Assembly: GCA_038257035.1 (NCBI GenBank)
Contig: JBBSJT010000016.1
Span: 1-29,059 of the forward strand
DNA: 29,059 bases
Origin: Chlamydiia bacterium
GTDB taxonomy: Bacteria > Chlamydiota > Chlamydiia > Chlamydiales > Parachlamydiaceae
Reading direction: 5' to 3'
Under the pieces are notes generated by a model. That model had not been told where the DNA came from, searched no databases, and saw nothing but the letters and a program-made list of their open reading frames with translations. Positions 1-12,110 of this stretch are shown here, one piece after another. The translations under genes and the position numbers were made by a program. Position 1 is the first letter of the stretch, and each line of letters begins with the position of its first letter.

Positions 1-331
1 CACTAGGAATTCCAATATCTTCATTTATCATAATTGCGTAACCAGTTTCATCTCTCATTGAAAATGAAAATTCAGCATCTTCATTACTTTTTTTCTTTTT
101 TTGTTCCCAAATTTGATCATTAAACCATACTCCAAAAGTGACTTTTTTACTTTTTACCAAAGAGGTCGCCTTTGAATTCTTTTTATTATTTGCACTTGAG
201 TATTTCCAAGTTCCATTAGAATCTAAAATTGCATCTCTTCCTTCGGATGTTTTACATGTGGTTTGAGAGCCAAATAGAGCAGAAGTTAATAGGAGTGACA
301 ATACAACCAATGATGATAATTTACTTTTCAT
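1..331 (-). CDS. Secreted protein, DUF3157-like N-terminus (partial, runs off the window edge; not in ORF track)
   Basis: Hand translation: MKSKLSSLVVLSLLLTSALFGSQTTCKTSEGRDAILDSNGTWKY... A signal peptide is followed by a T-x-x-G-x-x-x-x-L-x-x-x-G-T-W-x-Y motif, and the frame is open to base 2. Confidence 0.7.
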   Translation of the reverse strand, partial: MKSKLSSLVVLSLLLTSALFGSQTTCKTSEGRDAILDSNGTWKYSSANNKKNSKATSLVKSKKVTFGVWFNDQIWEQKKKKSNEDAEFSFSMRDETGYAIMINEDIGIPS

Positions 332-373
332 TTTTTTCCCTTTTTTATAATTTATGAAATGCCAAAAAGAAAA

Positions 374-402
374 ATTGTAGGTGTTTTCAGATTTTTTTGC
401 AA
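374..402 (-). promoter_or_regulatory. sigma66/70-type promoter for the 1..331 gene
   Basis: TTGCAA-N17-TACAAT on the minus strand. Confidence 0.55.
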
Positions 403-657
403 AGCAAATGTTTTTCGTATCACTTTGAGTTTATGTAGTTTATGTTATTAAATAATTGAAAAACCCATAAAAACAGGCTTAAACACCCAGGCAGAGGGGA
501 TATGGGATAAATTTGGGAATTTATTTAAAATTGACATCAATATATTTAAAATAAAGGCTGCGATACAATGGAGAAACATCATGAGAGTAATATCCTAAAT
601 TCAGACGGTATGTTTAGAAATCTACATTAATCAGATTTGAATGATCCATCTTCCATA

Positions 658-957
658 TTAAACCTCTTCCTTGATTTTTAATTTTTCATCTTTGAATCCG
701 GAAACAATCCATTGAGTGACTTTTATGAAAATCCATACAAGAGATTTAACATATATAATAACAGTAATTAAGGCTTCTAGCACATAACCCTTTGCTAAAT
801 CACCCCTTAGAATGTTCGAAATAAAAGTTGGAGCATAGGATAAAATTTCGTAAAAGCTCGACCTTTCAAAAAGCGGTATTAAATCTAAAATTGCTACAAC
901 AGCTATCAATACACAAAATGCTGTTGCCATCCTGTTAAATCCCTTTTCATAATTCAT
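658..957 (-). CDS. Hypothetical membrane protein (2 TM)
   Basis: 99-aa ORF, AGGAG SD upstream, two hydrophobic segments. Confidence 0.7.
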   Translation of the reverse strand: MNYEKGFNRMATAFCVLIAVVAILDLIPLFERSSFYEILSYAPTFISNILRGDLAKGYVLEALITVIIYVKSLVWIFIKVTQWIVSGFKDEKLKIKEEV

Positions 958-1056
958 AAAGCTAAACTCCTTTTTATTTAATTTATACCCTATCCGAAGG
1001 GCTATTTTTTATTAGAATCCCATTGCTAGAAAGAATCCTTTCCGGCAATCGAGAAA

Positions 1057-1176
1057 TTATTTGTCGTTAAAGTGATCCTTTATATCATCGCCCTTGATAT
1101 ACCATTTTTTGCCAAGTTTCTTGCCTTTAAGAATTCCTTCTCTGATCATTTTTGTAACGGAATGACCAAAATATCT
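1057..1176 (-). pseudogene. Remnant of an excisionase-type (HTH_17/MerR-like) DNA-binding protein, C-terminal half
   Basis: Reads ...HSVTKMIREGILKGKKLGKKWYIKGDDIKDHFNDK*, matching the IRxGxLxGxKxGxxWxI wing motif. An in-frame TGA upstream removes the first helices. Confidence 0.6.
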
Positions 1177-1322
1177 TCAAAAATGGAAATCTGTAGAGAA
1201 AGCTTTTATCGAAGTCTCTCACAAAAGGGTAAGGCTAGATTTTTAATGCTTGGCAACGCGGTAAATCTGGTGGTTTAGATTGATTTCCATCCTACACACG
1301 CAAAAGTTGGTTTTTGTCTTGA

Positions 1323-1505
1323 TTATTTTGGGTTACATTTACCTATTATAACAGACAACATATTACATATTATTATGAACACCGTAAAAACATATATTGT
1401 ATAATAAATATTATCCATTTCAATATTTAGAAACCATTTTTCTAGTTGGCTATAATTCTCCATTGCCGTTTTTTCTATTACTTCGATGAACTCACTAACT
1501 TTCAT
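1323..1505 (-). CDS. Small hypothetical membrane protein
   Basis: 60-aa ORF, AAGGA SD, one C-terminal hydrophobic helix. Confidence 0.5.
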   Translation of the reverse strand: MKVSEFIEVIEKTAMENYSQLEKWFLNIEMDNIYYTIYVFTVFIIICNMLSVIIGKCNPK

Positions 1506-1609
1506 TTTAATCCTTTAAAGAGTGTTTTTTTATGACTTTGAAATTATTTACTCGAAAACAACGGTGCCTTGTTATTTATTTCATAAGAACTATCATTTTA
1601 GATATAGCT

Positions 1610-1843
1610 TTAAGTTGTTAGGTTTGATAGAAATGCTTTTACATGCTTAAGTGATAGAACACACCACATACCTAAATAGTAAGAATTTGTTTCTATTTTT
1701 TTAAGGTTTATATTTTCATTCTTATTTTCTAAAAATATAATTTTATTAACAACCCATTTTAATGGAATCCAAAAAGCTAATGATATTAAATACCATAAAA
1801 TGAAATCGACGAAATAGTAGAGATAGAAATATAAATAATGCAT
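1610..1843 (-). CDS. Small hypothetical membrane protein (start moved to ATG 1843)
   Basis: AAGGA SD 6 nt before ATG 1843; aromatic/hydrophobic N-terminal half. Confidence 0.45.
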   Translation of the reverse strand: MHYLYFYLYYFVDFILWYLISLAFWIPLKWVVNKIIFLENKNENINLKKIETNSYYLGMWCVLSLKHVKAFLSNLTT

Positions 1844-1977
1844 GTGACATCCTTGGTTGTTTTGTTTAACTATATGAGCATGAGTAATTTGATAAATTAT
1901 TTTCAACTACAATGATTTATTGAAAAAGTACTTAGCCGGCCAAAATTCAAAGTAATTACTTTAAAAAGTGATCTCTC

Positions 1978-2396
1978 GTAATAGAGGGGAAACTTCTTCC
2001 CTGTGATATTGCCAAAACACAGCTCCTATGTAATATAAACGAAAGTGGGCTTCTATGTAATACTCGCGAAAGTCAGGTCAAAATTGTTCCAGAAAATTTT
2101 TAAACTCTCTTTCGCTACACTGCAACCGCCCCGACTTTACAAGAATTTCGATCATGGATTTAGTGTCCCCCTTTTCGGCTTCCTCAAATAACTTATCGGT
2201 TTTTTTAGTGAACTTTTTTGGTTTTTTTAGGCATCTCTCTCCTCAGCTGCTTATTTATATTTTTGATATGGTAACGGTTCTATTTAAGGTCATACCTACC
2301 CTCATTTTTCCTGTTTTTAATGCTGTTGGAGTCCCTTTATAAGCCTTTACAAATCCCCTTACGCTTTAAAAAGTTCATTGTAATAGAGAAGAAATT
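1978..2396 (+). repeat. Four copies of GTAATA-N5-GAAA-N-T
   Basis: Copies at 1978, 2030, 2057 and 2380. The middle two extend to CTATGTAATA-N4-CGAAAGT with a 27-bp period. Confidence 0.6.
2078..2234 (-). pseudogene. Small frameshifted ORF (51 aa if one A of the early A-run is removed)
   Basis: GAGGAG SD plus ATG at 2234. Frame 0 stops after 9 codons; the +1 frame reads PKKFTKKTDKLFEEAEKGDTKSMIEILVKSGRLQCSEREFKNFLEQF*. Confidence 0.45.
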
Positions 2397-2490
2397 AATT
2401 CTCTAACAACTCACCGGATCCGCAAACTTCCCCTTCATAGGCGGGTGGTCGCGTGCGCGCATAAGAGGGATGAAAATAGTCAGTAAAGTC

Positions 2491-2649
2491 TTATTTTGTG
2501 TTTAGTCCACATTCAACGCTCAACTCGATGAGAGCAGCTATATCGCCATTTTCCATCCGCCCCCATTTGTCCATTCTTGCTTTCGCGCTCTTCATTAATT
2601 CAGCACGCCTTTTTATCTTTTCTTGAGTTTTAACCAGTTCTTTCTTCAT
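2491..2649 (-). CDS. 52-aa hypothetical protein (below ORF-track cutoff)
   Basis: GAGGTG SD, ATG overlapping the 3' end of the HGGxSTG-like gene; MKKELVKTQEKIKRRAELMKSAKARMDKWGGWKNGDIAALIELSVECGLNTK*. Confidence 0.65.
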   Translation of the reverse strand: MKKELVKTQEKIKRRAELMKSAKARMDKWGRMENGDIAALIELSVECGLNTK

Positions 2650-2893
2650 TAATCACCTCGATTTCATGATTAATTGCCTTCATTTCTTTTAATAAAACAC
2701 GCTGTTCCTTACGGTCTTCTTTTGCCTGAATAGTAAGCCGTCCATGTGTTTTAAACTTGCGAGAGTGTCCGAAGTGCATCCGGCACCTATTGCTTCCCTT
2801 CATTGCAGGCGACAAGCAAGGCGCGCCTCCTTTTGTTCGGCATTTAGCGCCACAAGGTTGACAGCCACCCGAAACGATTCCCTTGACTGGCAT
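2630..2893 (-). CDS. HGGxSTG-domain-like Cys/His zinc-binding protein
   Basis: CGAKCRTKGGAPCLSPAMKGSNRCRMHFGHS matches the CGAxTRxGxxCxxPAxxxxRCRxHGGxS pattern (variant HFGHS), followed by a charged helix. Confidence 0.8.
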   Translation of the reverse strand: MPVKGIVSGGCQPCGAKCRTKGGAPCLSPAMKGSNRCRMHFGHSRKFKTHGRLTIQAKEDRKEQRVLLKEMKAINHEIEVINEERTG

Positions 2894-2895
2894 AT

Positions 2896-3336
2896 TTAGC
2901 TCCCTGTCTGTGTTTGTAAAATTCCTGATCCTAGATGATTGTAAGTAATATTGATATTTTGACAGGCTCCTCCAGATCGCTTTTTTTGGAGTCTTTCCAT
3001 TGCTTCATTGCTAAAACGAAGTAAATTTAAACCCAGTGTTTGATCTTGTTTGTGAGGATGGCTAAGCATACGAAGCCCCATAAGGTGACTGCTTACAATT
3101 TGCGCCCCATAGATCATCTCGATTGTATCTCGAGGATCAATGCCTTTCATAAGACTAATAATCCCCTCAATCTCTTCTTTTGAGATTTCCATATCATCAT
3201 AACCATATGACCTCTGCTTTTGTGAGTTACAGATTGCCTTCGAAGCCTCAATAATAAGAAGCTTGGCTGATTGTTCATCTGCTGTAAATGCTTTAACTAA
3301 AGGAAGCAATTTATCAGGTATTTTTATTTCTTTCAT
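2896..3336 (-). CDS. Hypothetical protein, paralog A' of 3795..4301
   Basis: Shares PxDxIE...Q...GL...LxKxRxxGA-QxINxxYNH with 3795..4301. Confidence 0.8.
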   Translation of the reverse strand: MKEIKIPDKLLPLVKAFTADEQSAKLLIIEASKAICNSQKQRSYGYDDMEISKEEIEGIISLMKGIDPRDTIEMIYGAQIVSSHLMGLRMLSHPHKQDQTLGLNLLRFSNEAMERLQKKRSGGACQNINITYNHLGSGILQTQTGS

Positions 3337-3372
3337 GAGGGGGCAGTCCTTTTTTTAAGTATATGCCATGCG

Positions 3373-3588
3373 TTAATACCAATAAAAATAAGATTCTTTT
3401 GCTCTTTCTTTAAATTTCTCATTCTCATCTCTATGTTTCAAAATTGCTTTTGAAGCTCTTTCTACCCCTTCTTTATCTCCTTTCTCTTTAGCCTTGATAA
3501 AACGTTTAGATAGACCCATATATTTCCTGCACCTTTCATTGTAAAAAGCTTCTACTTTTTTGTAATCACACCATTCATAATCATACAT
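3373..3588 (-). CDS. Small helical hypothetical protein, paralog B' of 3581..3793
   Basis: 71 aa; ungapped alignment with its neighbour; start overlaps the upstream gene's 3' end. Confidence 0.8.
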   Translation of the reverse strand: MYDYEWCDYKKVEAFYNERCRKYMGLSKRFIKAKEKGDKEGVERASKAILKHRDENEKFKERAKESYFYWY

Positions 3589-3793
3589 CCCAACAGTAAC
3601 CCCCTTTTTCAGCCCTTTCTTTATGTTTAGATTCTTGCGAGCTGTGCTTCCTATAAGCTAACCTTGCTTTTTCTGCATATATAGTATCACCACTTTCAGA
3701 GGCTTCTTTGAATTTTTTATACAGTTCGAATCGTTTCCATGAACTTTTTTCACTAAATTTCTCTACTTCATCCTGACTGTTCCAAGCAACCAT
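3581..3793 (-). CDS. Small helical hypothetical protein, paralog B (start moved to ATG 3793)
   Basis: GGAGG SD before ATG 3793; the 70-aa length matches its paralog. Confidence 0.8.
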   Translation of the reverse strand: MVAWNSQDEVEKFSEKSSWKRFELYKKFKEASESGDTIYAEKARLAYRKHSSQESKHKERAEKGGYCWDV

Positions 3794-3794
3794 A

Positions 3795-4301
3795 TTAAAT
3801 AACCTCCATTTCTTGTAATGCTTCCTCTTTAACAACTTTGATATTATTAATTTGTCCTTGATTGTGATTATATTGGACATTGATAAGTTGCGCGCCTTTA
3901 GTGCGATACTTTGTTAAAGAATCTAAAACCTGATGACCAAATTCAAAGAGGCTTATTGTTGCTGCGTAGCCAACTTGGGAGCTTTCTAAACCTCGAATAT
4001 ATGTTATGGCAAATTGACTTGCTAACGCCGCTTCGATTGCGTCCGCAGGCTGTAAAGATTCAATTAGGTTTACAACAAGCTGAATTTGATCCTCTGAAAC
4101 CATTGGTTGTTGTTTCTTGCCATAATCGCGACTATAGGTGCTTGGCTCCAATGGTGTCTTTAAACCATAAGCTCCTTTAATAGCTCCTTGTATAATCATT
4201 TTGATTACTTTTGGATTTTCTTTTGGCTTAACCTGCATTCCTAACTTTGGAATTGTGGCAACAGGGAAAGCAAGATCTTCGCGAGATACTTTTTTAGCCA
4301 T
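3795..4301 (-). CDS. Hypothetical protein, paralog A
   Basis: GAGG SD before ATG 4301; PADAIEAALASQ motif. Confidence 0.8.
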   Translation of the reverse strand: MAKKVSREDLAFPVATIPKLGMQVKPKENPKVIKMIIQGAIKGAYGLKTPLEPSTYSRDYGKKQQPMVSEDQIQLVVNLIESLQPADAIEAALASQFAITYIRGLESSQVGYAATISLFEFGHQVLDSLTKYRTKGAQLINVQYNHNQGQINNIKVVKEEALQEMEVI

Positions 4302-4312
4302 TTTAAACCTCA

Positions 4313-5365
4313 TTATTTGGAAAAATCATAGAAAACCTTTCCTTTATTGTAATAATCAATTCCCTTTAAAATCCATTCACGGAGATTTACCCCATGGTCT
4401 TTAAATGCATCACCCGGACTTTTCCCTTTAGGGACTGGCCATGGCTTTATATGGTGATATGTGGACTTCCAGAAACTATAAGCTTTTTTACCTGAATCAT
4501 CAAAGTCAAGCGCATAGAGTACTGTTGTGGCTTGCCGTATTATCCGATCCGTTATGATGTCCGGTCTAATAGTTACACCACCTAAAGCTATGCAAGAACA
4601 ACAATCTGCAGCAAGTTGTTGAAGGAGCATTGCATCAAGTTCTGCCTCTACAATTACAAGTGGCTTATAAATGTCTCCATAAAATGAAGGGCATGTAATT
4701 CCCCCTGCAGTAATGTGATATTTGGGATATTCATCACCCTCTTTCCAGTTATGTCGCCGAATTTTTACCCTAACAGGAATATCATCTCTAAAAGAGGGAA
4801 TAACGATCCCCTGAGGTAAACATAATAACCGAGATCCACCCTCTTTCGACAAATCCGGTAGCCCCCACAGCTCCCTTGGCTCAAAAACATCTTTCGAATT
4901 CCATCCCAATTGAAAATCAACTATGCTTTGAATTGTAAGCCCCCTATCTTTATCTGCATTGAGGAGATTAGGGTTTTCAAGCAAATATTGATGGCTTTTT
5001 TGAACAAAATCAGCTGACCTTTGTTCCCATTCCTTTGAAGGCATTGCTAATGACTTGGCAATAAATTTCTCTTTAGGACGTACCAAAAGATTTCTTGATG
5101 AATTTTTGGACTGCTTACCAACTTTGAGACAGGCTGATTTAAAATCCATACCCATGTAATCCCGACAAAATTGAATAGCATCACCTGAACGCAAACATTT
5201 CCGACACCAAAAACGACCATCACTGCCCTCTTCTGGCCAGACGCAAAATCGATCTTTTCCGTCACAAGATGCATCCGGACATGGTGAATGGTATTCCCCT
5301 CCTTTAGAAGCTGCAACTTTTAGTGGGTGAACCCCCAATTCTTTCAACAGATCAAGTACATTCAT
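4313..5365 (-). CDS. DNA primase: P4-alpha-type Zn ribbon plus TOPRIM domain
   Basis: GGEYHSPCP...CDGKDRF...FWCRKC...GDAI zinc ribbon; TOPRIM motifs LVIVEAELDA and ALDFDDSG. Confidence 0.9.
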   Translation of the reverse strand: MNVLDLLKELGVHPLKVAASKGGEYHSPCPDASCDGKDRFCVWPEEGSDGRFWCRKCLRSGDAIQFCRDYMGMDFKSACLKVGKQSKNSSRNLLVRPKEKFIAKSLAMPSKEWEQRSADFVQKSHQYLLENPNLLNADKDRGLTIQSIVDFQLGWNSKDVFEPRELWGLPDLSKEGGSRLLCLPQGIVIPSFRDDIPVRVKIRRHNWKEGDEYPKYHITAGGITCPSFYGDIYKPLVIVEAELDAMLLQQLAADCCSCIALGGVTIRPDIITDRIIRQATTVLYALDFDDSGKKAYSFWKSTYHHIKPWPVPKGKSPGDAFKDHGVNLREWILKGIDYYNKGKVFYDFSK

Positions 5366-5855
5366 AATTTCTCCTTAAAATAATAAACATATCTCGACAG
5401 TCTTGAAGATTAGGTAATTCGTATTTATCCCCATTTCGAATAAACAACTGATCTAACAAATCGTGAAAATCACTTTGCTCTGGTTTTTGGTATTTCGAAA
5501 AATTTGATTTTAAACACCAAAAAGTGAAATCAACCCAAAGAGATCTTAAAGCTACCATTCGCTGAGGCCATCCCATCGCTCTTCCAACTACAGGTTGAGA
5601 GACCTCAAGATGACCTTCTTCCATTGCGATAGTTAACCTTTGTAAAACAATTCGAGTTCCATTTGCTATAACCTTTAATTTTGGTGGGTAACAAACGTGA
5701 CAAGGGTGACGTTCGAGTGAAAATGGTGTCACGTTAAGAGAATCTAGTCTTGTAGCAAGAGTGGCAAATTGATCTAATCGCGAAATAACTTTTAGTTCTG
5801 TCACGTTGTCACTCTCGTCACTTAACATTATTTCACTCATGATTCGCCTTTTCAT
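5352..5855 (-). CDS. Hypothetical replication-module protein; C-terminus resembles the winged-helix tail of phage primase/helicases; start uncertain
   Basis: Overlaps both neighbours. The C-terminal LWVDFTFWC...YELPNLQDCRDMF recalls D5-type helicase tails (from memory), and the 5' part overlaps the iteron cluster. Confidence 0.6.
   Translation of the reverse strand: MKRRIMSEIMLSDESDNVTELKVISRLDQFATLATRLDSLNVTPFSLERHPCHVCYPPKLKVIANGTRIVLQRLTIAMEEGHLEVSQPVVGRAMGWPQRMVALRSLWVDFTFWCLKSNFSKYQKPEQSDFHDLLDQLFIRNGDKYELPNLQDCRDMFIILRRNYECT
5688..5821. other. Putative replication origin (oppositely oriented GTGAC/GTCAC iterons)
   Basis: GTAAC/GTGAC/GTGAC at 5688, 5697 and 5706; GTCAC at 5728, 5800, 5808 and 5817; immediately downstream of the helicase gene. 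Confidence 0.7.
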
Positions 5856-7710
5856 CAGTCAATACTTTAGAAGTAAATCGATATACCCTTGTGCTTTTCT
5901 TAGCTCCAGGCAAACGTTCAGATCGTGTGGCACCTCCTTTCGAGTCAGCCATAAGGAGTTTATTCTTTAAACAGACACGAGCGAAAAGTTCTGGATCAAA
6001 GCCTTTACATATCTCGCGTTTAAAAGATTCGGGGAAAACATAAAATTCTTCTCCTTCTTCACAAGATCTTCGAAAGCCAACTCTCATAAAGGTCTTGCTA
6101 TATTTTTCTTGATCGTCAACCACCCAAGGAGTGAAACGACTTTCCCCATGTTGTTCAAAAAAATGATGAGCATGAGATATTATTTCCCGCTCTTCTTGTG
6201 AACCAATATCACCTCTAGCCCTTAACCAATCATTAAAACAATGCATGGCGGCTTCAATTGCGACCCCTTCATTCCAACCGGTAATTCCAAAATTTGTTGC
6301 AAGCTCACCGGCAATAGCTATTAAAGAAAAGCGATTAAAGGCACGATACACTTGTCCAGAAGCTGAAGCGGGGACAAATTTTTTTGATAATTCAGCCATC
6401 AAATTGTTTGAAAAAGAAATTATTTTCTTCTGATCCTCCAATAAGCAGCGAATAAACTCTATACCGGCTGAACCATAAAAAGATTGGCACAAATACCCTA
6501 TCTGTTCGGCAAAATTCTGTCCATTCTCAGCACCATGTAAATTTTGGAAACAACCGTATTCCTGACCATCGGCAGGTATATCAAGCACTCGAACTTCCTG
6601 ACCCGCCCTTACTTTTTGTTTTGCCTCTAACATGTGATCTGATAATGAAATTTCCCCTGACGATAAAAAAAGCAATCTCCAATTTTTACGTTTACGAGAA
6701 TCGCCGAGTTTATCCGAACGTGTTTTGCCCGTGCCGTTAGCTAACATATAAGCGACTTTCCCAATCTCACAACCGTCCATTTGACCCATTTCATCAAGAA
6801 CGAGCAAACTATCATTGTGTGCGGCCGCGGTTCCCTCTAATCCATTTGCTGTGGCGCGCCATTGTTGTAAATAATCAGACCCACCCCACACTGAAGCTGC
6901 AGCCCTTAAACATGTTGTTTTGCCTGATGAGGAACCTCCACGGAAATGAACTCCTCCGTTTTCTAGTCCTAGAGGAAGTAATAATGGGGGCGCAAAAGCC
7001 GCACTTAGAGCAAATATTAAGCGAGAGTTTCCAACACATTGTGCCGGTATCTGTTTCCATGCAAGTATACTACCAGAAACCGATTGTGTAGGAACTAAGC
7101 CAGTAGCTGTTTGAAGAATAAGCGGTTCATCACCACAATTTCCAATGGTTTCATTTTGAAATACAAATGCTTTTAGCTCTTTATTCCAACCTGTTTGATC
7201 TACACATCTAACAGTTTTGTTTGGCCTTGATGTTTGAATATAAATCGTAAGAAGTTGACGAGCCGATTTACCTGGATCAATTAGTAACCCCTTGGACAAT
7301 AACTCCTGTCTGTAAACAGCTCCATCAGTGGCAAGAAGCTGCATCGGCATCGCCCATGAATGCTCTAGGTTATCAAGATCAAAAAAACGAAGTAACCTTC
7401 CATGATTTTCCCCCACTTGATCACGAGTTCTTGCCACCACTTCCAATTTGGAACAAATCCGAATAACTGTCGGGGAATTTTCAGAATCTGTATCTTTTAA
7501 ATAAGTTAACCAACCTTCTTTATCAAAAATAAAACCGTCAGGCAAATTTGTATCTCCATACAATCTGTCTAAATCTTCTGCTCTAGCTACAGATAAAGAT
7601 TCATTGTCTAATAGTTTTTCTTGTTCTAATAGTGAAATGATGCGATTAGGCTTTTCAAATTGAGGAATTTCTAGTTGATGTTCACTAAGTGATATGTTAT
7701 TATCTTCCAT
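5833..7710 (-). CDS. DUF927-domain replicative helicase/ATPase (Cch-like)
   Basis: Walker A GGSSSGKTT, WRATANGLEG, Walker B LLVLDEMG, YMLANGTGKTR, LFLSSGE. Confidence 0.9.
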   Translation of the reverse strand: MEDNNISLSEHQLEIPQFEKPNRIISLLEQEKLLDNESLSVARAEDLDRLYGDTNLPDGFIFDKEGWLTYLKDTDSENSPTVIRICSKLEVVARTRDQVGENHGRLLRFFDLDNLEHSWAMPMQLLATDGAVYRQELLSKGLLIDPGKSARQLLTIYIQTSRPNKTVRCVDQTGWNKELKAFVFQNETIGNCGDEPLILQTATGLVPTQSVSGSILAWKQIPAQCVGNSRLIFALSAAFAPPLLLPLGLENGGVHFRGGSSSGKTTCLRAAASVWGGSDYLQQWRATANGLEGTAAAHNDSLLVLDEMGQMDGCEIGKVAYMLANGTGKTRSDKLGDSRKRKNWRLLFLSSGEISLSDHMLEAKQKVRAGQEVRVLDIPADGQEYGCFQNLHGAENGQNFAEQIGYLCQSFYGSAGIEFIRCLLEDQKKIISFSNNLMAELSKKFVPASASGQVYRAFNRFSLIAIAGELATNFGITGWNEGVAIEAAMHCFNDWLRARGDIGSQEEREIISHAHHFFEQHGESRFTPWVVDDQEKYSKTFMRVGFRRSCEEGEEFYVFPESFKREICKGFDPELFARVCLKNKLLMADSKGGATRSERLPGAKKSTRVYRFTSKVLTDEKANHE

Positions 7711-7727
7711 AGAAAGCCTTATAAGTT

Positions 7728-7757
7728 AAAAGCCACTACGTTCTAGCGCAGTGGCTT
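7728..7757 (-). terminator. Terminator/attenuator-like hairpin just upstream of the helicase gene
   Basis: Minus strand AAGCCACTGCG-CTAGAA-CGTAGTGGCTT-TT. Confidence 0.5.
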
Positions 7758-7800
7758 ATGTTAATTAAACTTACACCTTAAGGTGCTTTGCAATTGATCG

Positions 7801-7841
7801 TGCCTCAACTTCCAACCTTTTGGGGTTGAGGTGTTTTTTTT
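7801..7841 (+). terminator. Intrinsic terminator antisense to the element genes
   Basis: GCCTCAACT...GGTTGAGGT stem, with G-U pairs valid only on the plus strand, followed by T8. Confidence 0.6.
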
Positions 7842-7879
7842 CCCGTTCATATTTATACCACGGGTTATAGCGAGAAAAC

Positions 7880-8194
7880 TCACGAATGAGCTGCTCCCTT
7901 GTTACAGGACATCGTTTCATATTTATCTCCTTGTTTATAACGATTCTCAACTTGTTTGATTAAAGTGAAAAATATTTTAGGTTCAACTAATACTCGCCGG
8001 TTCACACGGATAAAAGCTTCCTTAATACCCATTTCTTCTGCCCTGTAAATATACGCGCGCAGCGCAGATTCACTTGGCCAAGGATGCTCTGCACAAAATT
8101 GTCTGATTGTTAAGAGCTGCCCTTTCTTTGGTTCCAACCAATCAGTCACCTTATCGATACCATTTTGTTTACCAACTACGGTGGCATTTATCAT
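7880..8194 (-). CDS. Excisionase/AlpA-like DNA-binding protein
   Basis: LLTIRQFCAEHPWPSESALRAYIY...FIRVNRRVLVE winged-HTH pattern; AAGGAGG SD; position between integrase and replication genes. Confidence 0.75.
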   Translation of the reverse strand: MINATVVGKQNGIDKVTDWLEPKKGQLLTIRQFCAEHPWPSESALRAYIYRAEEMGIKEAFIRVNRRVLVEPKIFFTLIKQVENRYKQGDKYETMSCNKGAAHS

Positions 8195-8332
8195 GTCTAA
8201 CCTCCTTAATGTTTTTCTGATAAATTTAAAGCCTTATTGACTAAAATAAACCTCATTATTGCTGCTTAAGGCATTTTACACAACAAAAACAAGCTCACAA
8301 TAGAGCCAAAACACAACATAAGCAAATTTTTA

Positions 8333-9475
8333 CTATATAAACATGTGAATAATAGATAGTTTGTCGCCGAATTCAGAATTTATTTTACGTGCGGATAAAA
8401 TGGATTCAAAAACTCCGTTTATTAACCAGCGTCTATATAGAGAGTGAACGGCTCTAAATGGGGGGTATGAATGCGGTAACTTACGGATTGGGGTTTCAGT
8501 CCTTAAATGATATAAGATACCGTTTAAAACATGCCTTGGATCATGTTGTGAAGGCGCTCCTCTCCTTTTTTTTATTTCAGGTACTTGCAGACATATATTT
8601 TCCCATTCTTCAATTGAAACTTCACTATATTTGCTCTCGCAGTAATTTGGTTTTGTCTTTTTAAATTTACCGATCGGTCTTAAAGATAATGAGCATACAG
8701 TTTTTTTTATTTTTGCCTGTTTCCCAGCCTTTTTAAAAAATCTTGAAACATCGCTAGGTAACAACTGGCCGTAATCTTGATTTGTAAATACGAATAAGGA
8801 ATCGTTTTTTATTAAATTACATAATGGCTGCCATATATATTCTGGAAGTAAATGTGAGACCATATGACTTCCGTGAGAGGTTGTACGGAATAAATGAATA
8901 CACGTTGTTATCCCATCTTCCGGATCTACATCATTCATTTTCATCCGCAACACTTCTTCTAGAGTAATATAATCGTCTCCCGGCTGTAATTCTCTATTTA
9001 GAAACCATAAAATTTCAGCAATCACAGCAGCTTGAAAATTTATTTTTTTAAGGCGGCTTATGAATTTATCATATTCGGATTTTTTTAAAAAACAATACTT
9101 CCGATCAGATCTTCTACTTGATTTTTCTATATTAGTTTTTTTTAAAACTTTTCTTTGAAGTCCCGTCACCCAAGAAATAGGTATATCATTTGCTGTGCAA
9201 AGTTCCTTAACTTCATCGCCTGAAAGCATCCATGGCAAAATCGTTTCTTTAGTGTTTTTATTAATAAATTTAAAGGCCTCTTCACATGATCTTCGTGGCG
9301 GTGAATCTGGTAATTTTTCTCCATCTACAGGAATCAACTGAAATTGATGTAAATATCCATCCTCTCCCAAAGCATTTCTTGGAACATAAAACATGGGGAC
9401 GTTGACCCACCTTCCACGATAATAAGCGAATTGCACTAGATGTAGGTAATCATCCTTCTTCTTTTTTATGGTCAT
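8333..9475 (-). CDS. Fusion protein: degenerate tyrosine-recombinase core plus IS5-family DUF4096-type HTH
   Basis: Middle: FLKKSEYDKF...LEEVLRMKMNDVD...FVF...FKKAGKQAKIKKTVCSLSLRP. C-terminus: VSIEEWENI...RRGAPSQHDPRHVLNGILYHLRT...LPHSYPP...YRRW. AAGGAGG SD. Confidence 0.75.
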   Translation of the reverse strand: MTIKKKKDDYLHLVQFAYYRGRWVNVPMFYVPRNALGEDGYLHQFQLIPVDGEKLPDSPPRRSCEEAFKFINKNTKETILPWMLSGDEVKELCTANDIPISWVTGLQRKVLKKTNIEKSSRRSDRKYCFLKKSEYDKFISRLKKINFQAAVIAEILWFLNRELQPGDDYITLEEVLRMKMNDVDPEDGITTCIHLFRTTSHGSHMVSHLLPEYIWQPLCNLIKNDSLFVFTNQDYGQLLPSDVSRFFKKAGKQAKIKKTVCSLSLRPIGKFKKTKPNYCESKYSEVSIEEWENICLQVPEIKKRRGAPSQHDPRHVLNGILYHLRTETPIRKLPHSYPPFRAVHSLYRRWLINGVFESILSARKINSEFGDKLSIIHMFI

Positions 9476-9490
9476 ATATTTTACCTCCTT

Positions 9491-10555
9491 CTATTTTCTA
9501 CGATTTTGGGATCTTTCTAAAACATCTTTCAAATGACTTTGACTGTAGTGTGCATAACGCCGAGTCATTGCAGGTGATCGATGCCCTAGAATTGCCATTA
9601 ATTCACCTTGAGTTGCTCCTGACATTGCCATATTTGAAGCCGCCGTGTGTCGTAAATCATGAAAGCGGAAGTTCTCAATTCCTGCTTTCTTGACTGCTCT
9701 CTCAAAGGAATCACGAACACAAACTTTTTTCTGCTCCTGTGTATTGTACAAAGATTTAAAGACTAGATCTTCTTTGGCGGCTTTTGGCTTTATGCAATTT
9801 TGAAAAATCAACTTGACCTCATCGGTCATAGGAAGTACACGTCTATCACCATTTTTGGTGCGCTCTAAAATAATTTTAGATTCTTCATAACAAACATCAC
9901 ACACACGAAGTCCTGTGATTTCCCCTAGGCGCATTCCAGTAAATATTGCAAGAGATACAATAGGAAATAGATGAGGATTACGCGATTCCTTACAAGTTTT
10001 TAAAAGTCGCTCTTTTTCTTCAGAACTTAAAAAGCGTTCGCGTCCTTCACCTTCTGACGGTTTAGTTACATTTCGGATAGGGCTATCTTCTAACCATCCC
10101 CATTCCTTTACTGTTACTGCTAAAGCCTTACCTAAAGCACTTAAATAACGATTAACAGTGCTTGGACTGCGTAATCTACCCCGAACAGTTGTTTCACTTA
10201 GCAGATGATCGCGACCGCTTGCAATGACTGCTGTTGTGAGATCCGCAAGCAGGAGATGACCGCACCTTTGCTTCCACCAATTCAAAAGACTTGTTTGTTT
10301 TTCTTGACGGCCGGGATACTTAATAAGCCATTGTTCAACAAAACGATCGATCATTTCATTAACAGTATGCCGCTTTGCCTCGACTGTTTTAAAATGCCGA
10401 CCATCACGAATCCCACTTTCAACATCTTGGATCCATTTTTTTGCTAAAGTGCGGGTACGAAAAGAAGCTCGTTGTGGTAAATGTCCCCTTAACCTCACTT
10501 CGGCATGGTATGAACTGCTACCATCTTTGCGAACGCATTCACGAATCGTTCCCAT
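9491..10555 (-). CDS. Site-specific tyrosine integrase
   Basis: TGMRLGEI, FRFHDLRH and LGHRSPAMTRRY give a full catalytic set; N-terminal arm-binding beta domain; AGGAGG SD. Confidence 0.95.
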   Translation of the reverse strand: MGTIRECVRKDGSSSYHAEVRLRGHLPQRASFRTRTLAKKWIQDVESGIRDGRHFKTVEAKRHTVNEMIDRFVEQWLIKYPGRQEKQTSLLNWWKQRCGHLLLADLTTAVIASGRDHLLSETTVRGRLRSPSTVNRYLSALGKALAVTVKEWGWLEDSPIRNVTKPSEGEGRERFLSSEEKERLLKTCKESRNPHLFPIVSLAIFTGMRLGEITGLRVCDVCYEESKIILERTKNGDRRVLPMTDEVKLIFQNCIKPKAAKEDLVFKSLYNTQEQKKVCVRDSFERAVKKAGIENFRFHDLRHTAASNMAMSGATQGELMAILGHRSPAMTRRYAHYSQSHLKDVLERSQNRRK

Positions 10556-10685
10556 GACGACCTCCTATAAAACTGAATAATGTAAAAAAGATTAGAATAA
10601 AGGACAACAAGAGATTAACAATCCCTAGCTTTATTTGCTTTTGATACTCATGTGAGTAAACTTTTGGATGAATTTTTCTTTTGAT

Positions 10686-10938
10686 TACGCACTTTTTACG
10701 CATTTTAAGATAAAATTTGACACATAAGGACAGTAATGAATAGAAACTGGCAAAGACTGCCACGCTTGTCACGTTGAAAAAAAAACAGATGTGTGACATA
10801 AAATCCACTGTAATGCCACTTTTGTCACGCGCGTCACGCGAAGAAAAGAAAGACAATGGCAAACATAAAGAGAAAATCTTTAAAGAAAAAGTTTGATTTG
10901 TGCTGGTTTGTTTTGGCGGAGTGCGTAAAAATTGCGTA
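10686..10938. repeat. Attachment-arm region: inverted pair of tandem TGCGTA sites flanking a 9-bp-period GYCAC repeat cluster
   Basis: TACGCACTTTTTACGCA (10686-10702) is the reverse complement of TGCGTAAAAATTGCGTA (10922-10938) at 16/17; YGYCAC at 10758, 10767, 10814, 10823 and 10832. Confidence 0.7.
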
Positions 10939-11002
10939 CGCAGAGATAAAAAACTTAATTTTAAATATGAATTAATGTATCTAAGGAACTGAGAATAAAG
11001 GA

Positions 11003-11085
11003 TGCTCGGAGCCGGACTCGAACCGGCACAGGATTGCTCCCGAGGGATTTTAAGTCCCTTGTGTCTACCATTTCACCACCCGAGC
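11003..11085 (-). tRNA. tRNA-Leu (anticodon TAA), CCA not encoded
   Basis: GCTCGGG/CCGAGC acceptor stem, AGGGA-CTTAAAA-TCCCT anticodon arm, long variable arm, GGTTCGAGTCC T-loop. Confidence 0.97.
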
Positions 11086-11132: not shown

Positions 11133-11173
11133 AAAAATTAATCCCTCTGCAAAATAAATTGCAGAGGGATTAA
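11133..11173 (-). terminator. Intrinsic terminator of gap-grgA
   Basis: Perfect 15-bp stem TTAATCCCTCTGCAA/TTGCAGAGGGATTAA followed by a T-run on the minus strand. Confidence 0.85.
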
Positions 11174-11177
11174 ATAA

Positions 11178-12110
11178 TCAGCTGTCATCACGTTTTGGAG
11201 CCGAATAATCAGTTTCAGGAAACTTTTCTTCGCCAAAATGTGCAGTCGATGGCATGTCATCATTTTCTTTTAGAAATGGACGATTTGCTCTTTGCTTATA
11301 GATTTCTTCTTCTTCAGCCTCTGTAGATTCAAAAGAACCATATTCAGGTACTGCAAGAGGTGGAATAAGCGCTGAGATTTCTAAAGGATCAGTTTCTATG
11401 GTTTCTAAGGGATTTGGGGCAAGTTCTTGGTTTTCACCACATTGCTCACGCATTGCCACTTCTTCTTTCGTATAAAAAGCTCCTTTAAAAAGAGCGTTGT
11501 CCTTATACCTTGCAATCGTTTCGGAAATCAACATAGGTGGTGGAGCTAACATAACCGATGGATTAGGTCTTGGCGCAGCCTCTGCAGCAGGAGTGTTTGA
11601 AACGATTGGCTCGCCATTCTCGTTTTCAGCAACTTCACCTTCTACAGTGGAGTCATCCTGACGACCACGACGACGTCTGTATTGTCTACGCTTATCTTTC
11701 TTACGTCCATCACCTTTTGCATCGGCCGCAACTTCAGCAGCTTCCTGTGCAGGTTTTACACTTTCCACCTCGACTACTTGCGGAACTTGCTTTTCTTGAA
11801 CTGGCTCTTTAACCTGTTTTACATTGCTTTCACGACCACCACCAATTTTAATGGAACGATCTAGACCAACGTTTTTCAAGACCATTCTGGCCTCTCTCAC
11901 TTCTAATACTTCGTAATCGGTCGCAGGAACCATAAAAGCCTTTGGTCGCTCTTGTGAGCGATAAAAGACAGAATTTCCAAACGTTATGACTTCGACTGAA
12001 TCAACAAAATATTCTTCCTGTCCGCCAGCTTTACTGCTGCGAACAACTAATTTAGAACCCTCTTTTGGGGTTACTACTGTTTCTATGATTGGTTCTCGCG
12101 TAAAATCCAC
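11178..12110 (-). CDS. grgA: Chlamydial transcription activator GrgA (CT504 family)
   Basis: N-terminal FTREPIIETVVTPKEG.KL.VR...DYEVLEVRE, central K/R-rich patch, acidic tail; syntenic downstream of gapA as in Chlamydia. Confidence 0.85.
   Translation of the reverse strand: MDFTREPIIETVVTPKEGSKLVVRSSKAGGQEEYFVDSVEVITFGNSVFYRSQERPKAFMVPATDYEVLEVREARMVLKNVGLDRSIKIGGGRESNVKQVKEPVQEKQVPQVVEVESVKPAQEAAEVAADAKGDGRKKDKRRQYRRRRGRQDDSTVEGEVAENENGEPIVSNTPAAEAAPRPNPSVMLAPPPMLISETIARYKDNALFKGAFYTKEEVAMREQCGENQELAPNPLETIETDPLEISALIPPLAVPEYGSFESTEAEEEEIYKQRANRPFLKENDDMPSTAHFGEEKFPETDYSAPKRDDS

Follow-up and report, generated by a model that had tools for sequence, protein, structure and literature searches.

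The island described here is located on a 29,059-bp stretch of DNA, the entire contig JBBSJT010000016.1 of Chlamydiia bacterium GCA_038257035.1 (210 contigs, 2.37 Mb, 36% GC), which was analysed as a whole and is referred to as the window. It adjoins the single tRNA gene of the window, tRNA-Leu(UAA) (11003..11085, minus strand; ARAGORN; 56 bits with the Rfam tRNA model, the sole match in an Rfam scan of the window), which is its integration target. The island is an intact-looking member of a family of integrative, self-replicating elements of chlamydiae, of which no description was found in the literature on chlamydial islands, satellites, prophages and the signature genes. The evidence supports an element that was acquired horizontally, targets a tRNA gene and brings its own replication genes. 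The block is probably an integrated copy of such a small element, whose family is distributed widely across the chlamydial phylum, with transfer being passive or of some other kind.

The gene order given in the original prediction, in which tRNA-Leu is followed by an integrase gene (int), a regulator-like fusion, a xis-like gene, a DUF927 helicase, a primase and a cassette of small genes, is correct. All 13 open reading frames (ORFs) of the island are located on the minus strand and are open, and catalytic motifs are readable in the translated integrase, helicase and primase. The predicted Shine-Dalgarno sequences are likewise found before most island genes, with AGGAG-like sites upstream of int, the fusion, the xis-like gene, the primase and several small genes. 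The tyrosine integrase of 354 amino acids (aa) is encoded at 9491..10555 (PF00589 E 7.5e-32; phrog_1 E 1.3e-59), and its start (10555) lies 447 nt from the 3' end of the tRNA gene (11003). The interval is a non-coding, int-proximal arm (10556..11002, GC 33%) that holds an inverted pair of an 18-nt motif and a cluster of TGYCACG repeats. Replication functions are represented by a DUF927 helicase of 625 aa (5833..7710; PF06048 E 8.8e-81; phrog_1139 E 3.3e-96), with readable Walker A (GSSSGKT) and Walker B (LVLDE) motifs and a weak NCBIfam match to the Cch1 helicase of the staphylococcal cassette chromosome SCCmec, and by a DnaG-type primase of 350 aa with CHC2 zinc ribbon and Toprim domains (4313..5365; phrog_849 E 6.6e-20; TIGR01391 E 8e-9), for which the Pfam scores of CHC2 and Toprim_2 are both slightly below their cut-offs.

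This backbone recurs throughout the phylum. When 400 sampled genomes of the phylum were searched with a profile of the helicase clade, built from six chlamydial helicases, 48 genomes from 39 of 212 genera gave a match; some families gave none (0 of 23 and 0 of 29 genomes), and several copies contain stop codons. From the profile matches 12 loci were retrieved, and all of them encode an integrase together with a DUF927 protein. A primase is found in eight, a member of the 172-aa helical family (see below) in six, and an HGG protein in seven. The order of helicase before primase, which had been noted as unusual, is kept in all eight fetched loci that have both genes. In ten of the 12 loci a tRNA gene lies next to int, namely tRNA-Met (five loci), tRNA-Tyr (two loci) and tRNA-Lys, tRNA-Asn or tRNA-Leu (one locus each). 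Attachment sites (att) were analysed in 12 loci comprising these ten tRNA-adjoining loci, locus L035 and the window. Direct repeats of the 3' part of the tRNA gene are present at the far end of seven loci and delimit units of 8.7-12.7 kb; six of these repeats are identical over 67, 53, 45, 50, 43 and 56 nt, and one spans 34 nt at 97% identity. No far-end tRNA repeat was found in this set for L206, L208, L212, L216 and the window. With att perfect in six of the seven bounded relatives and at least five different tRNA targets in use, the family has moved recently.

L035, a locus on a 2.1-Mb Parachlamydiaceae contig that serves as the best reference for the window, has the same flank as the window, consisting of the glyceraldehyde-3-phosphate dehydrogenase gene (GAPDH), a gene for a 310-aa protein and tRNA-Leu. 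It encodes an integrase with 74%, a helicase with 75% and a primase with 68% identity to their counterparts in the window, a homolog of the conserved 167-aa protein p167, a helical-family protein of 229 aa and an HGGxSTG protein, which are followed by 3 kb of cargo with lipoproteins, a Sel1 protein and a HepT/MNT pair. A perfect 56-nt copy of att is located 10.8 kb away at the far end, and beyond it a second, different island begins. When the island of genome G037 is included, identities to the window are 67-74% for the integrase, 66-75% for the DUF927 protein and 66-68% for the primase. The backbone that the window has in common with L035 and G037 also comprises xis, p167, the 146/172-aa family and the HGG protein, and it recurs in L206-L217. 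The second island of L035 (L035:17279-21851) carries genes for an integrase with 36% identity to that of the window, a 319-aa integrase-like protein, a 69-aa winged-helix protein and a DnaB-type helicase (PF03796 E 3e-90), so that tRNA-Leu is followed by a tandem array; its gene set presumably recalls the backbone of the chlamydial plasmid.

Within the genus the island is accessory. Seven of 40 relatives were matched by the DUF927 helicase; the two genomes of the same genus, G001 and G002, which are 86% and 96% complete, gave no match. G001 is collinear with the window from secY through GAPDH to tRNA-Leu and about 100 nt further, after which unrelated genes follow and the island genes are absent. 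This arm of about 100 nt beside the tRNA gene of G001 suggests either that an element has been lost or that a different element has used the same site. Positions 1-2500 of the window were not found in the 40 relatives, save for one 140-nt piece. On these grounds, a reading of the block as core genome was rejected.

The tRNA-proximal boundary can be placed by comparison with the relatives. The 3' 56 nt of the tRNA gene (11003-11058, from the 3' end through the anticodon loop) are the counterpart of the att core that is repeated in relatives, and in the G037 copy homology is lost in the anticodon loop. A far-end copy of the tRNA 3' part was found neither in the window nor in the other 209 contigs of the assembly, for which repeat finding, a 27-nt pattern with up to 3 mismatches and blastn-short searches of the tRNA region against all 210 contigs were used; these searches and a local alignment of the 58-nt core with positions 1-3000 of the window returned chance matches of at most 22 nt only. 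The conserved module ends at about 2491. The left limit of 2078 proposed originally is not a demonstrated boundary, and positions 1-2500 also consist of accessory DNA. Since neither the window, which is the whole contig, nor the assembly holds a second att, the island probably extends beyond 2078 as far as the end of the contig. The distal ends of complete relatives carry the same kind of cargo, so the island most likely continues to and beyond position 1. That no far-end att was detected for this copy is due either to the end of the contig or to decay of that part of the island.

Neighbouring sequences in the genus were also considered. The genes that follow tRNA-Leu in G001 and G002 sit inside other contigs (C1 and C68) of the source genome, which shows that the region is rearranged and that synteny yields no boundary. 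In G002, tRNA-Leu lies 150 nt from a contig end, and another contig, C15, contains a 59-nt copy of the 3' half of tRNA-Leu followed by a gene pair, which we take to be DUF4160/DUF2442-like, and then the contig end (L027:10916-11736). A copy of this gene pair with 78% identity is present on the 1.6-kb contig C203 of the source genome. The shared gene pair gave no link between C203 and the window island. One soil-metagenome run that contained 59% of the sampled words (Logan contigs, depth 2-5) contained neither joints nor junctions of attP or of the empty site, and its depth carried no usable signal.

As had been stated in the original prediction, no virion or conjugation genes are in view: none of the 13 island ORFs matches capsid, terminase, portal, tail, relaxase or type IV secretion system (T4SS) families. 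This observation extends to the complete relatives. In six att-bounded units with 71 ORFs, which were scanned with Pfam at E<=1e-4, no ORF matched any of these families. A prophage or an integrative and conjugative element, either of which would have been indicated by such genes within the same att-bounded unit, was thereby ruled out for the family. The matches in the complete units were to integrase, DUF927, primase zinc ribbons and HigB/HigA-like and HepT/MNT pairs. The distal part is variable. In L214 the cargo is a defence-like block (L214:11977-18411) in which an MmeI-type restriction-modification enzyme is accompanied by a DEAD/ResIII helicase, a T5orf172 protein and a PD-(D/E)XK nuclease, and in L213 (L213:5451-7741) it includes two ankyrin-repeat proteins.

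The same lack of conjugation genes bears on the possibility that the island is an integrative mobilizable element moved in trans by a conjugative T4SS of the F-like tra type known from islands and megaplasmids of Parachlamydiaceae, with an oriT or relaxase that was not recognised. F-type tra systems are documented in Protochlamydia (PMC548262, PMC5010888), G037, which carries a close copy of the island, has genes for TraC and a type IV coupling protein (T4CP), and the element has conserved genes without an assigned function that such a reading could draw on. However, T4CP, TraC_F and TrwC (PF02534, PF11130, PF08751) were matched neither in the source genome nor in the carriers G005, G006 and G024, no relaxase family is present among the 71 ORFs of the complete relatives, and a helicase and a primase of its own would be unnecessary for an element that is merely mobilised. 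Trans-mobilisation is accordingly regarded as improbable.

The gene content had originally been taken to typify a phage satellite and to imply an unknown helper phage or another transfer route. Satellite status is not borne out by the ORFs of the island, among which no match to Psu, Sid or Delta, TerS, capsid-remodelling or AlpA families was obtained, and the same backbone is also found on small plasmids, so the gene content alone does not imply a helper phage. The island might still be a true phage satellite of the minimalist type represented by PICMIs (phage-inducible chromosomal minimalist islands) or P4, for which an unknown tailed phage of environmental chlamydiae would induce excision and replication and package the DNA in helper capsids, with roles in induction, packaging or interference with the helper for the 146/172-aa and HGGxSTG proteins; this is considered unlikely. 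In a wider and likewise doubtful version, the islands would be satellites of undiscovered tailed double-stranded DNA phages of amoeba-dwelling chlamydiae, the 146/172-aa and HGGxSTG proteins would form a new helper-hijacking or packaging module, and the helpers would have left the terminase and portal remnants seen in about 8% of the genomes sampled from the phylum.

Evidence was found both for and against a satellite. The succession of int, a small winged-helix gene, primase and helicase and then variable defence or toxin-antitoxin cargo is the layout of a minimal satellite, but neither the island ORFs nor the six complete relatives contain a hallmark family. DUF927 replicases are encoded by the P4-like contig L097, which has Psu, by the small contigs L043 and L060, each with a major head protein, and by the 10-kb record vB_Pae_U10, which has int, xis, primase, DUF927 and a GpN capsid gene; on the other hand, the same replication module serves plasmids, and none of the 79 DUF927 loci in a scan of IMG/VR has the chlamydial backbone. 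A single helicase query of IMG/VR gave no match, and the alignment of the 172-aa family was too divergent for a scan of this collection. With regard to helpers, Terminase_6N is present in 32 of 401 sampled genomes of the phylum, and the large terminase subunit (TerL), portal, ParB-methylase and RusA form a cluster in two genomes, one a single contig that likewise contains the element and the other of Parachlamydiaceae type. HK97-type capsid, however, was found in only five of 401 genomes compared to the element in 48 of 400, the source genome is matched by neither of two TerL families nor by HK97 capsid or portal, and the terminase loci are located away from the elements. Terminase is found in eight of 48 carriers versus 24 of 352 non-carriers (odds ratio 2.7, Fisher p 0.04), an association that is overstated by this p value because the sampled genomes are related. 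Two tailed-phage remnants were recorded in the course of these searches, L218:4027-13213 (G139:C1) and L219:9439-13077 (G006:C52), with a large terminase (phrog_979 E 1e-162), a ParB-like DNA methyltransferase, a RusA-type resolvase and a nearby integrase; G139 also has a partial portal gene.

The island was also compared with described systems, and in tests of membership in P4, phage-inducible chromosomal islands (PICIs) and PICMIs it fails the tested defining features. According to PMC10803314, PICMIs of Vibrionaceae have a core of int, alpA and prim with defence genes beyond prim, are located beside fis and are packaged by helpers. The chlamydial element resembles them as a small island that combines a tyrosine integrase with a gene directly downstream of int or overlapping it, a small DNA-binding regulator or excision gene, a replication gene of the primase/helicase type and variable distal defence cargo, and in the lack of capsid and packaging genes. 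It differs in its position in tRNA genes, in the combination of a DUF927 helicase with a separate DnaG-type primase and in two further conserved genes, whereas PICMIs, in the same source, are next to fis, encode AlpA (PF05930/PF12728) and a DUF3987/DUF5906 primase and are packaged by virulent helpers. The window island in particular is next to tRNA-Leu instead of fis and has no DUF3987/DUF5906 primase. For its candidate AlpA-like regulator no Pfam family was matched, and the model is a winged helix with weak excisionase matches.

P4, which like the P4-like elements belongs to Enterobacterales, integrates in tRNA-Leu, where its int adjoins the tRNA, and has ori and crr repeats. The likeness to the island includes int beside tRNA-Leu, a primase/helicase of its own and two separated clusters of short repeats that flank the replicase, and the P4-like contig L097 uses a DUF927-type replicase. 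Psu of this contig was detected with E 7.7e-93 in the same library in which no small ORF of the window matched Psu, Sid, Delta, Epsilon or AlpA (PHROG and Pfam). Moreover, helicase and primase are separate in the island, with the 167-aa gene between them, and not fused as in alpha, and no P2-like helper was found. In contrast to PICIs and capsid-forming PICIs, terS, ppi, cpm and own capsid genes are absent from the 13 island ORFs and the 71 ORFs of the relatives, and helicase, 167-aa gene and primase follow each other on one strand without a divergent stl/str pair.

Staphylococcal cassette chromosomes (SCC) use serine recombinases at orfX, and Staphylococcus aureus pathogenicity islands (SaPIs) show the order pri-rep-ori and have Stl-type repressors and packaging genes. 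SCCmec and SaPIs resemble the chlamydial island as chromosomal islands with a DUF927/MCM-like helicase that is thought to replicate the excised circle, but a serine recombinase at orfX, the pri-rep-ori order, Stl and packaging genes are absent from the window. The DUF927 protein of a staphylococcal island is described as a bona fide helicase in PMC5862659. In the same bacterial family as the window, two integrase-bearing islands beside tRNA genes are described: Pam100G of Protochlamydia (Pr.) amoebophila, a 100-kb tra island (PMC548262), and PnaD_GI1 of Pr. naegleriophila Diamant, a 7.3-kb island with a split recombinase and an ABC transporter, which is also located at tRNA-Leu and for which no helicase or primase is reported there (PMC5010888). 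The window island differs from PnaD_GI1 in having its own helicase and primase and from Pam100G in not being a 100-kb tra island.

A parallel outside the chromosome is plasmid III of Legionella fallonii LLAP-10 (NZ_LN614829.1), a 14.6-kb non-mobilizable circle from an amoeba-associated host, which has a helix-turn-helix gene, a close DUF927 helicase (42% identity) and an integrase-family gene. It differs from the island as a free plasmid without an annotated DnaG-type primase, 172-aa family or HGG protein. A metagenomic contig of 7,009 bp (L126:1-7009), which has a 123-nt terminal direct repeat and is probably circular, encodes a DUF927 helicase with 43% identity; other backbone genes were not detected on it.

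Several conserved genes of the island have no assigned function. The product of the small gene at 7880..8194 (104 aa) is a winged-helix protein and a candidate excisionase or AlpA-like regulator with homologs in seven related loci. Its AlphaFold2 (AF2) model has a predicted local distance difference test score (pLDDT) of about 90 over residues 30-88 and gave weak Foldseek matches to Tn916 Xis, the GIsul2 excisionase and TorI, while no Pfam family was matched and a profile search against PDB sequences returned nothing meaningful. The earlier designation as xis-like is based on gene position, a weak winged-helix model and the weak excisionase matches. A 59-aa ORF that overlaps the end of this gene (7771..7950) has no family match and is kept in L035 (65%), G037 (39%) and L122 (42%).

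The gene downstream of int (8333..9475) encodes a 380-aa fusion with a partial Phage_integrase domain and a C-terminal DUF4096 domain (IS5-type helix-turn-helix), and its N-terminus has no assigned family. The Phage_integrase match is weak (E 8e-5, profile positions 39-133 of 172) and the C-terminal catalytic part of the recombinase core is missing; the DUF4096 match has E 2.6e-16. The fusion is kept at 47-49% in G037 and L122, and other relatives have unrelated genes in the slot downstream of int. In the window (8333-9491), L028, L209, L211, L213, L214 and L215 the gene in this slot abuts or overlaps int by 1 to about 77 nt according to ORF coordinates. A variable gene that overlaps int recalls iolg of PICMIs, which these islands need for excision.

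Downstream of the primase, the helical family is represented by two paralogs, a 172-aa protein (3795..4313; identified by alignment) and a 146-aa protein (2896..3336), which is orthologous to the copy in the G037 island (45%). At least 400 unnamed metagenomic homologs of this 146/172-aa family exist, and in the ESM Atlas it falls into hypothetical clusters only, with Chlamydiota as the commonest phylum in the cluster. No match was found in Pfam, PHROGs or NCBIfam. The AF2 model of the 146-aa protein (pLDDT 83) consists of five helices and has no Foldseek match at E<=0.001 in PDB or BFVD, and VIA-align of the helical-family model produced generic helical-hairpin matches only (best Z 8.1). Many metagenomic contigs with the 172-aa family are 9-16 kb long and thus near the size of the att-bounded units; these could be free circles or could result from assembly breaks at att sites.

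The 87-aa Cys-rich protein encoded at 2630..2893 is a degenerate HGGxSTG-domain protein in which the motif reads HFGHS. It scored 26.3 bits on NF041373, for which the cut-off is 29, compared to 50 bits for the ortholog from L035. The remaining ORFs of the small-gene cassette are a 99-aa ORF (3581..3880), a 71-aa ORF (3373..3588), which is its paralog by eye, and a 52-aa ORF (2491..2649), the final gene of the conserved module, for which an equivalent 66-aa ORF ends the G037 copy. For the 99-aa and 71-aa ORFs no family was matched.

The original prediction had placed an origin between helicase and primase. This interval is not intergenic and consists of a conserved 167-aa gene without a functional match (p167, 5352..5855), which shows 33-51% identity to counterparts in other islands and for which a word-based search gave seven homologs, none of them named; it does, however, hold a cluster of GTCAC/TGYCACG repeats in its 5' part (5687-5825). 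A second cluster of TGYCACG repeats is located between int and the tRNA gene (10758-10838). Exact TGYCACG sites occur seven times in the 29-kb window, against a chance expectation of 3.05 for the whole window, and six of them are within the two clusters. Both clusters hold the same positions in the three closest islands. The 18-nt motif of the int-proximal arm forms an inverted pair at 10686-10703 and 10921-10938, and this motif and the first approximately 100 nt of the arm recur beside related islands in other genomes. From their sequence, the repeat clusters and the 18-nt pair are candidate binding sites for the integrase or for replication proteins, and an origin at the GTCAC-repeat cluster is possible.

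Several points weigh against the view of the island as a mobile, self-replicating element. No att repeat surrounds the window copy, so its mobility is deduced from the relatives only, and none of a circular form, a raised copy number or an attP junction was shown. The GC content of the island core (38.6%) equals that of the neighbouring chromosome (38.4%), and composition therefore gives no sign of a recent arrival. The degenerate HGGxSTG motif, a small gene that looks frameshifted and a fragment of an antidote gene mean that this copy may be partly decayed. The putative origin consists of a repeat pattern that overlaps a coding gene. Finally, passive transfer is a guess, and the missing functions in transfer or packaging could reside in the conserved 146/172-aa and HGG proteins.

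The frameshifted-looking gene is a small frame without its own start codon (2078..2242, minus strand; no family), for which an upstream ATG frame stops after nine codons in an A-run. Beyond it, accessory DNA of low GC content (30%) extends to the contig end (1..2077) and is probably distal island cargo. This part contains short ORFs and, at 1072-1278 on the plus strand, a fragment of an addiction-module antidote gene with a partial match to PF21716 (E 1.9e-4), a family that is also present at the distal end of the complete element L210.

Signs of decay of this kind, the lack of a far-end att repeat and the match in GC content with the flank would also fit a dead remnant, i.e. an old insertion, or a replication module from a prophage that has decayed, which has become fixed and immobile, as would the pseudogenised copies elsewhere and the retention of nothing but the arm of about 100 nt beside the tRNA gene of G001. 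Such a fate is nevertheless very unlikely for the window copy. All 13 module genes are open, most main genes have ribosome-binding sites and the catalytic motifs can be read; the missing att may lie past the contig end, which is 11 kb from the tRNA gene and within the family range of 8.7-12.7 kb; and complete relatives reveal that the module is the whole element and not a piece of a prophage.

If the island is a self-replicating integrative element, as is favoured here, the following sequence of events can be proposed. The tyrosine integrase would recombine an attP core, identical to the last approximately 56 nt of tRNA-Leu(UAA), with the tRNA gene, and this recombination would rebuild the tRNA and put int beside it. 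Excision may be directed by the winged-helix protein and perhaps by the gene just downstream of int. For the excised circle, the element's helicase of the DUF927 (Cch/MCM-like) type and its DnaG-type primase would then carry out the copying, with replication probably starting at one of the GTCAC clusters (5687-5825 or 10758-10838), comparable to ori and crr of P4. The distal part would be changeable cargo, which appears as toxin-antitoxin, defence and ankyrin genes in relatives and as decayed remnants in the window. Spread may be passive, in that a multicopy circle would be taken up by the competence system of a host or be transferred during co-infection of an amoeba, and would then integrate. 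Since a multicopy circle that is taken up as DNA and inserted by its own integrase would require no further genes, passive spread is considered the simplest reading and the most likely transfer route, and hitch-hiking on a phage or on a conjugative system a less likely one. The source genome encodes a ComEC-type competence protein.

On the other side of the tRNA gene, the window continues with a conserved 310-aa gene, GAPDH and an apparent block of secY and ribosomal-protein genes, which is syntenic with a same-genus genome. The 310-aa gene (11178-12110) encodes an acidic low-complexity protein that adjoins GAPDH in related genomes too (55% identity in L035) and for which no Pfam, PHROG or NCBIfam family was matched. 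Between this gene and the tRNA gene, a perfect-looking hairpin with a stem of about 12 nt (11138-11173) is probably a terminator.

Chlamydiae are obligate intracellular bacteria in which gene exchange is poorly understood. Roughly one-eighth of the genomes sampled from the phylum contain a member of the family, although no means of transfer can be seen among its genes. With its toxin-antitoxin, restriction/defence and ankyrin cargo it may shape phage defence and the interaction with the host. If the islands are satellites, they would point to unknown tailed phages of chlamydiae; if they spread as naked DNA, they would provide a simple model for transformation-driven mobility. To our knowledge, genetic tools for chlamydia-related bacteria are few, and the native pair of integrase and att together with a small self-replicating module could serve as such tools for these bacteria.

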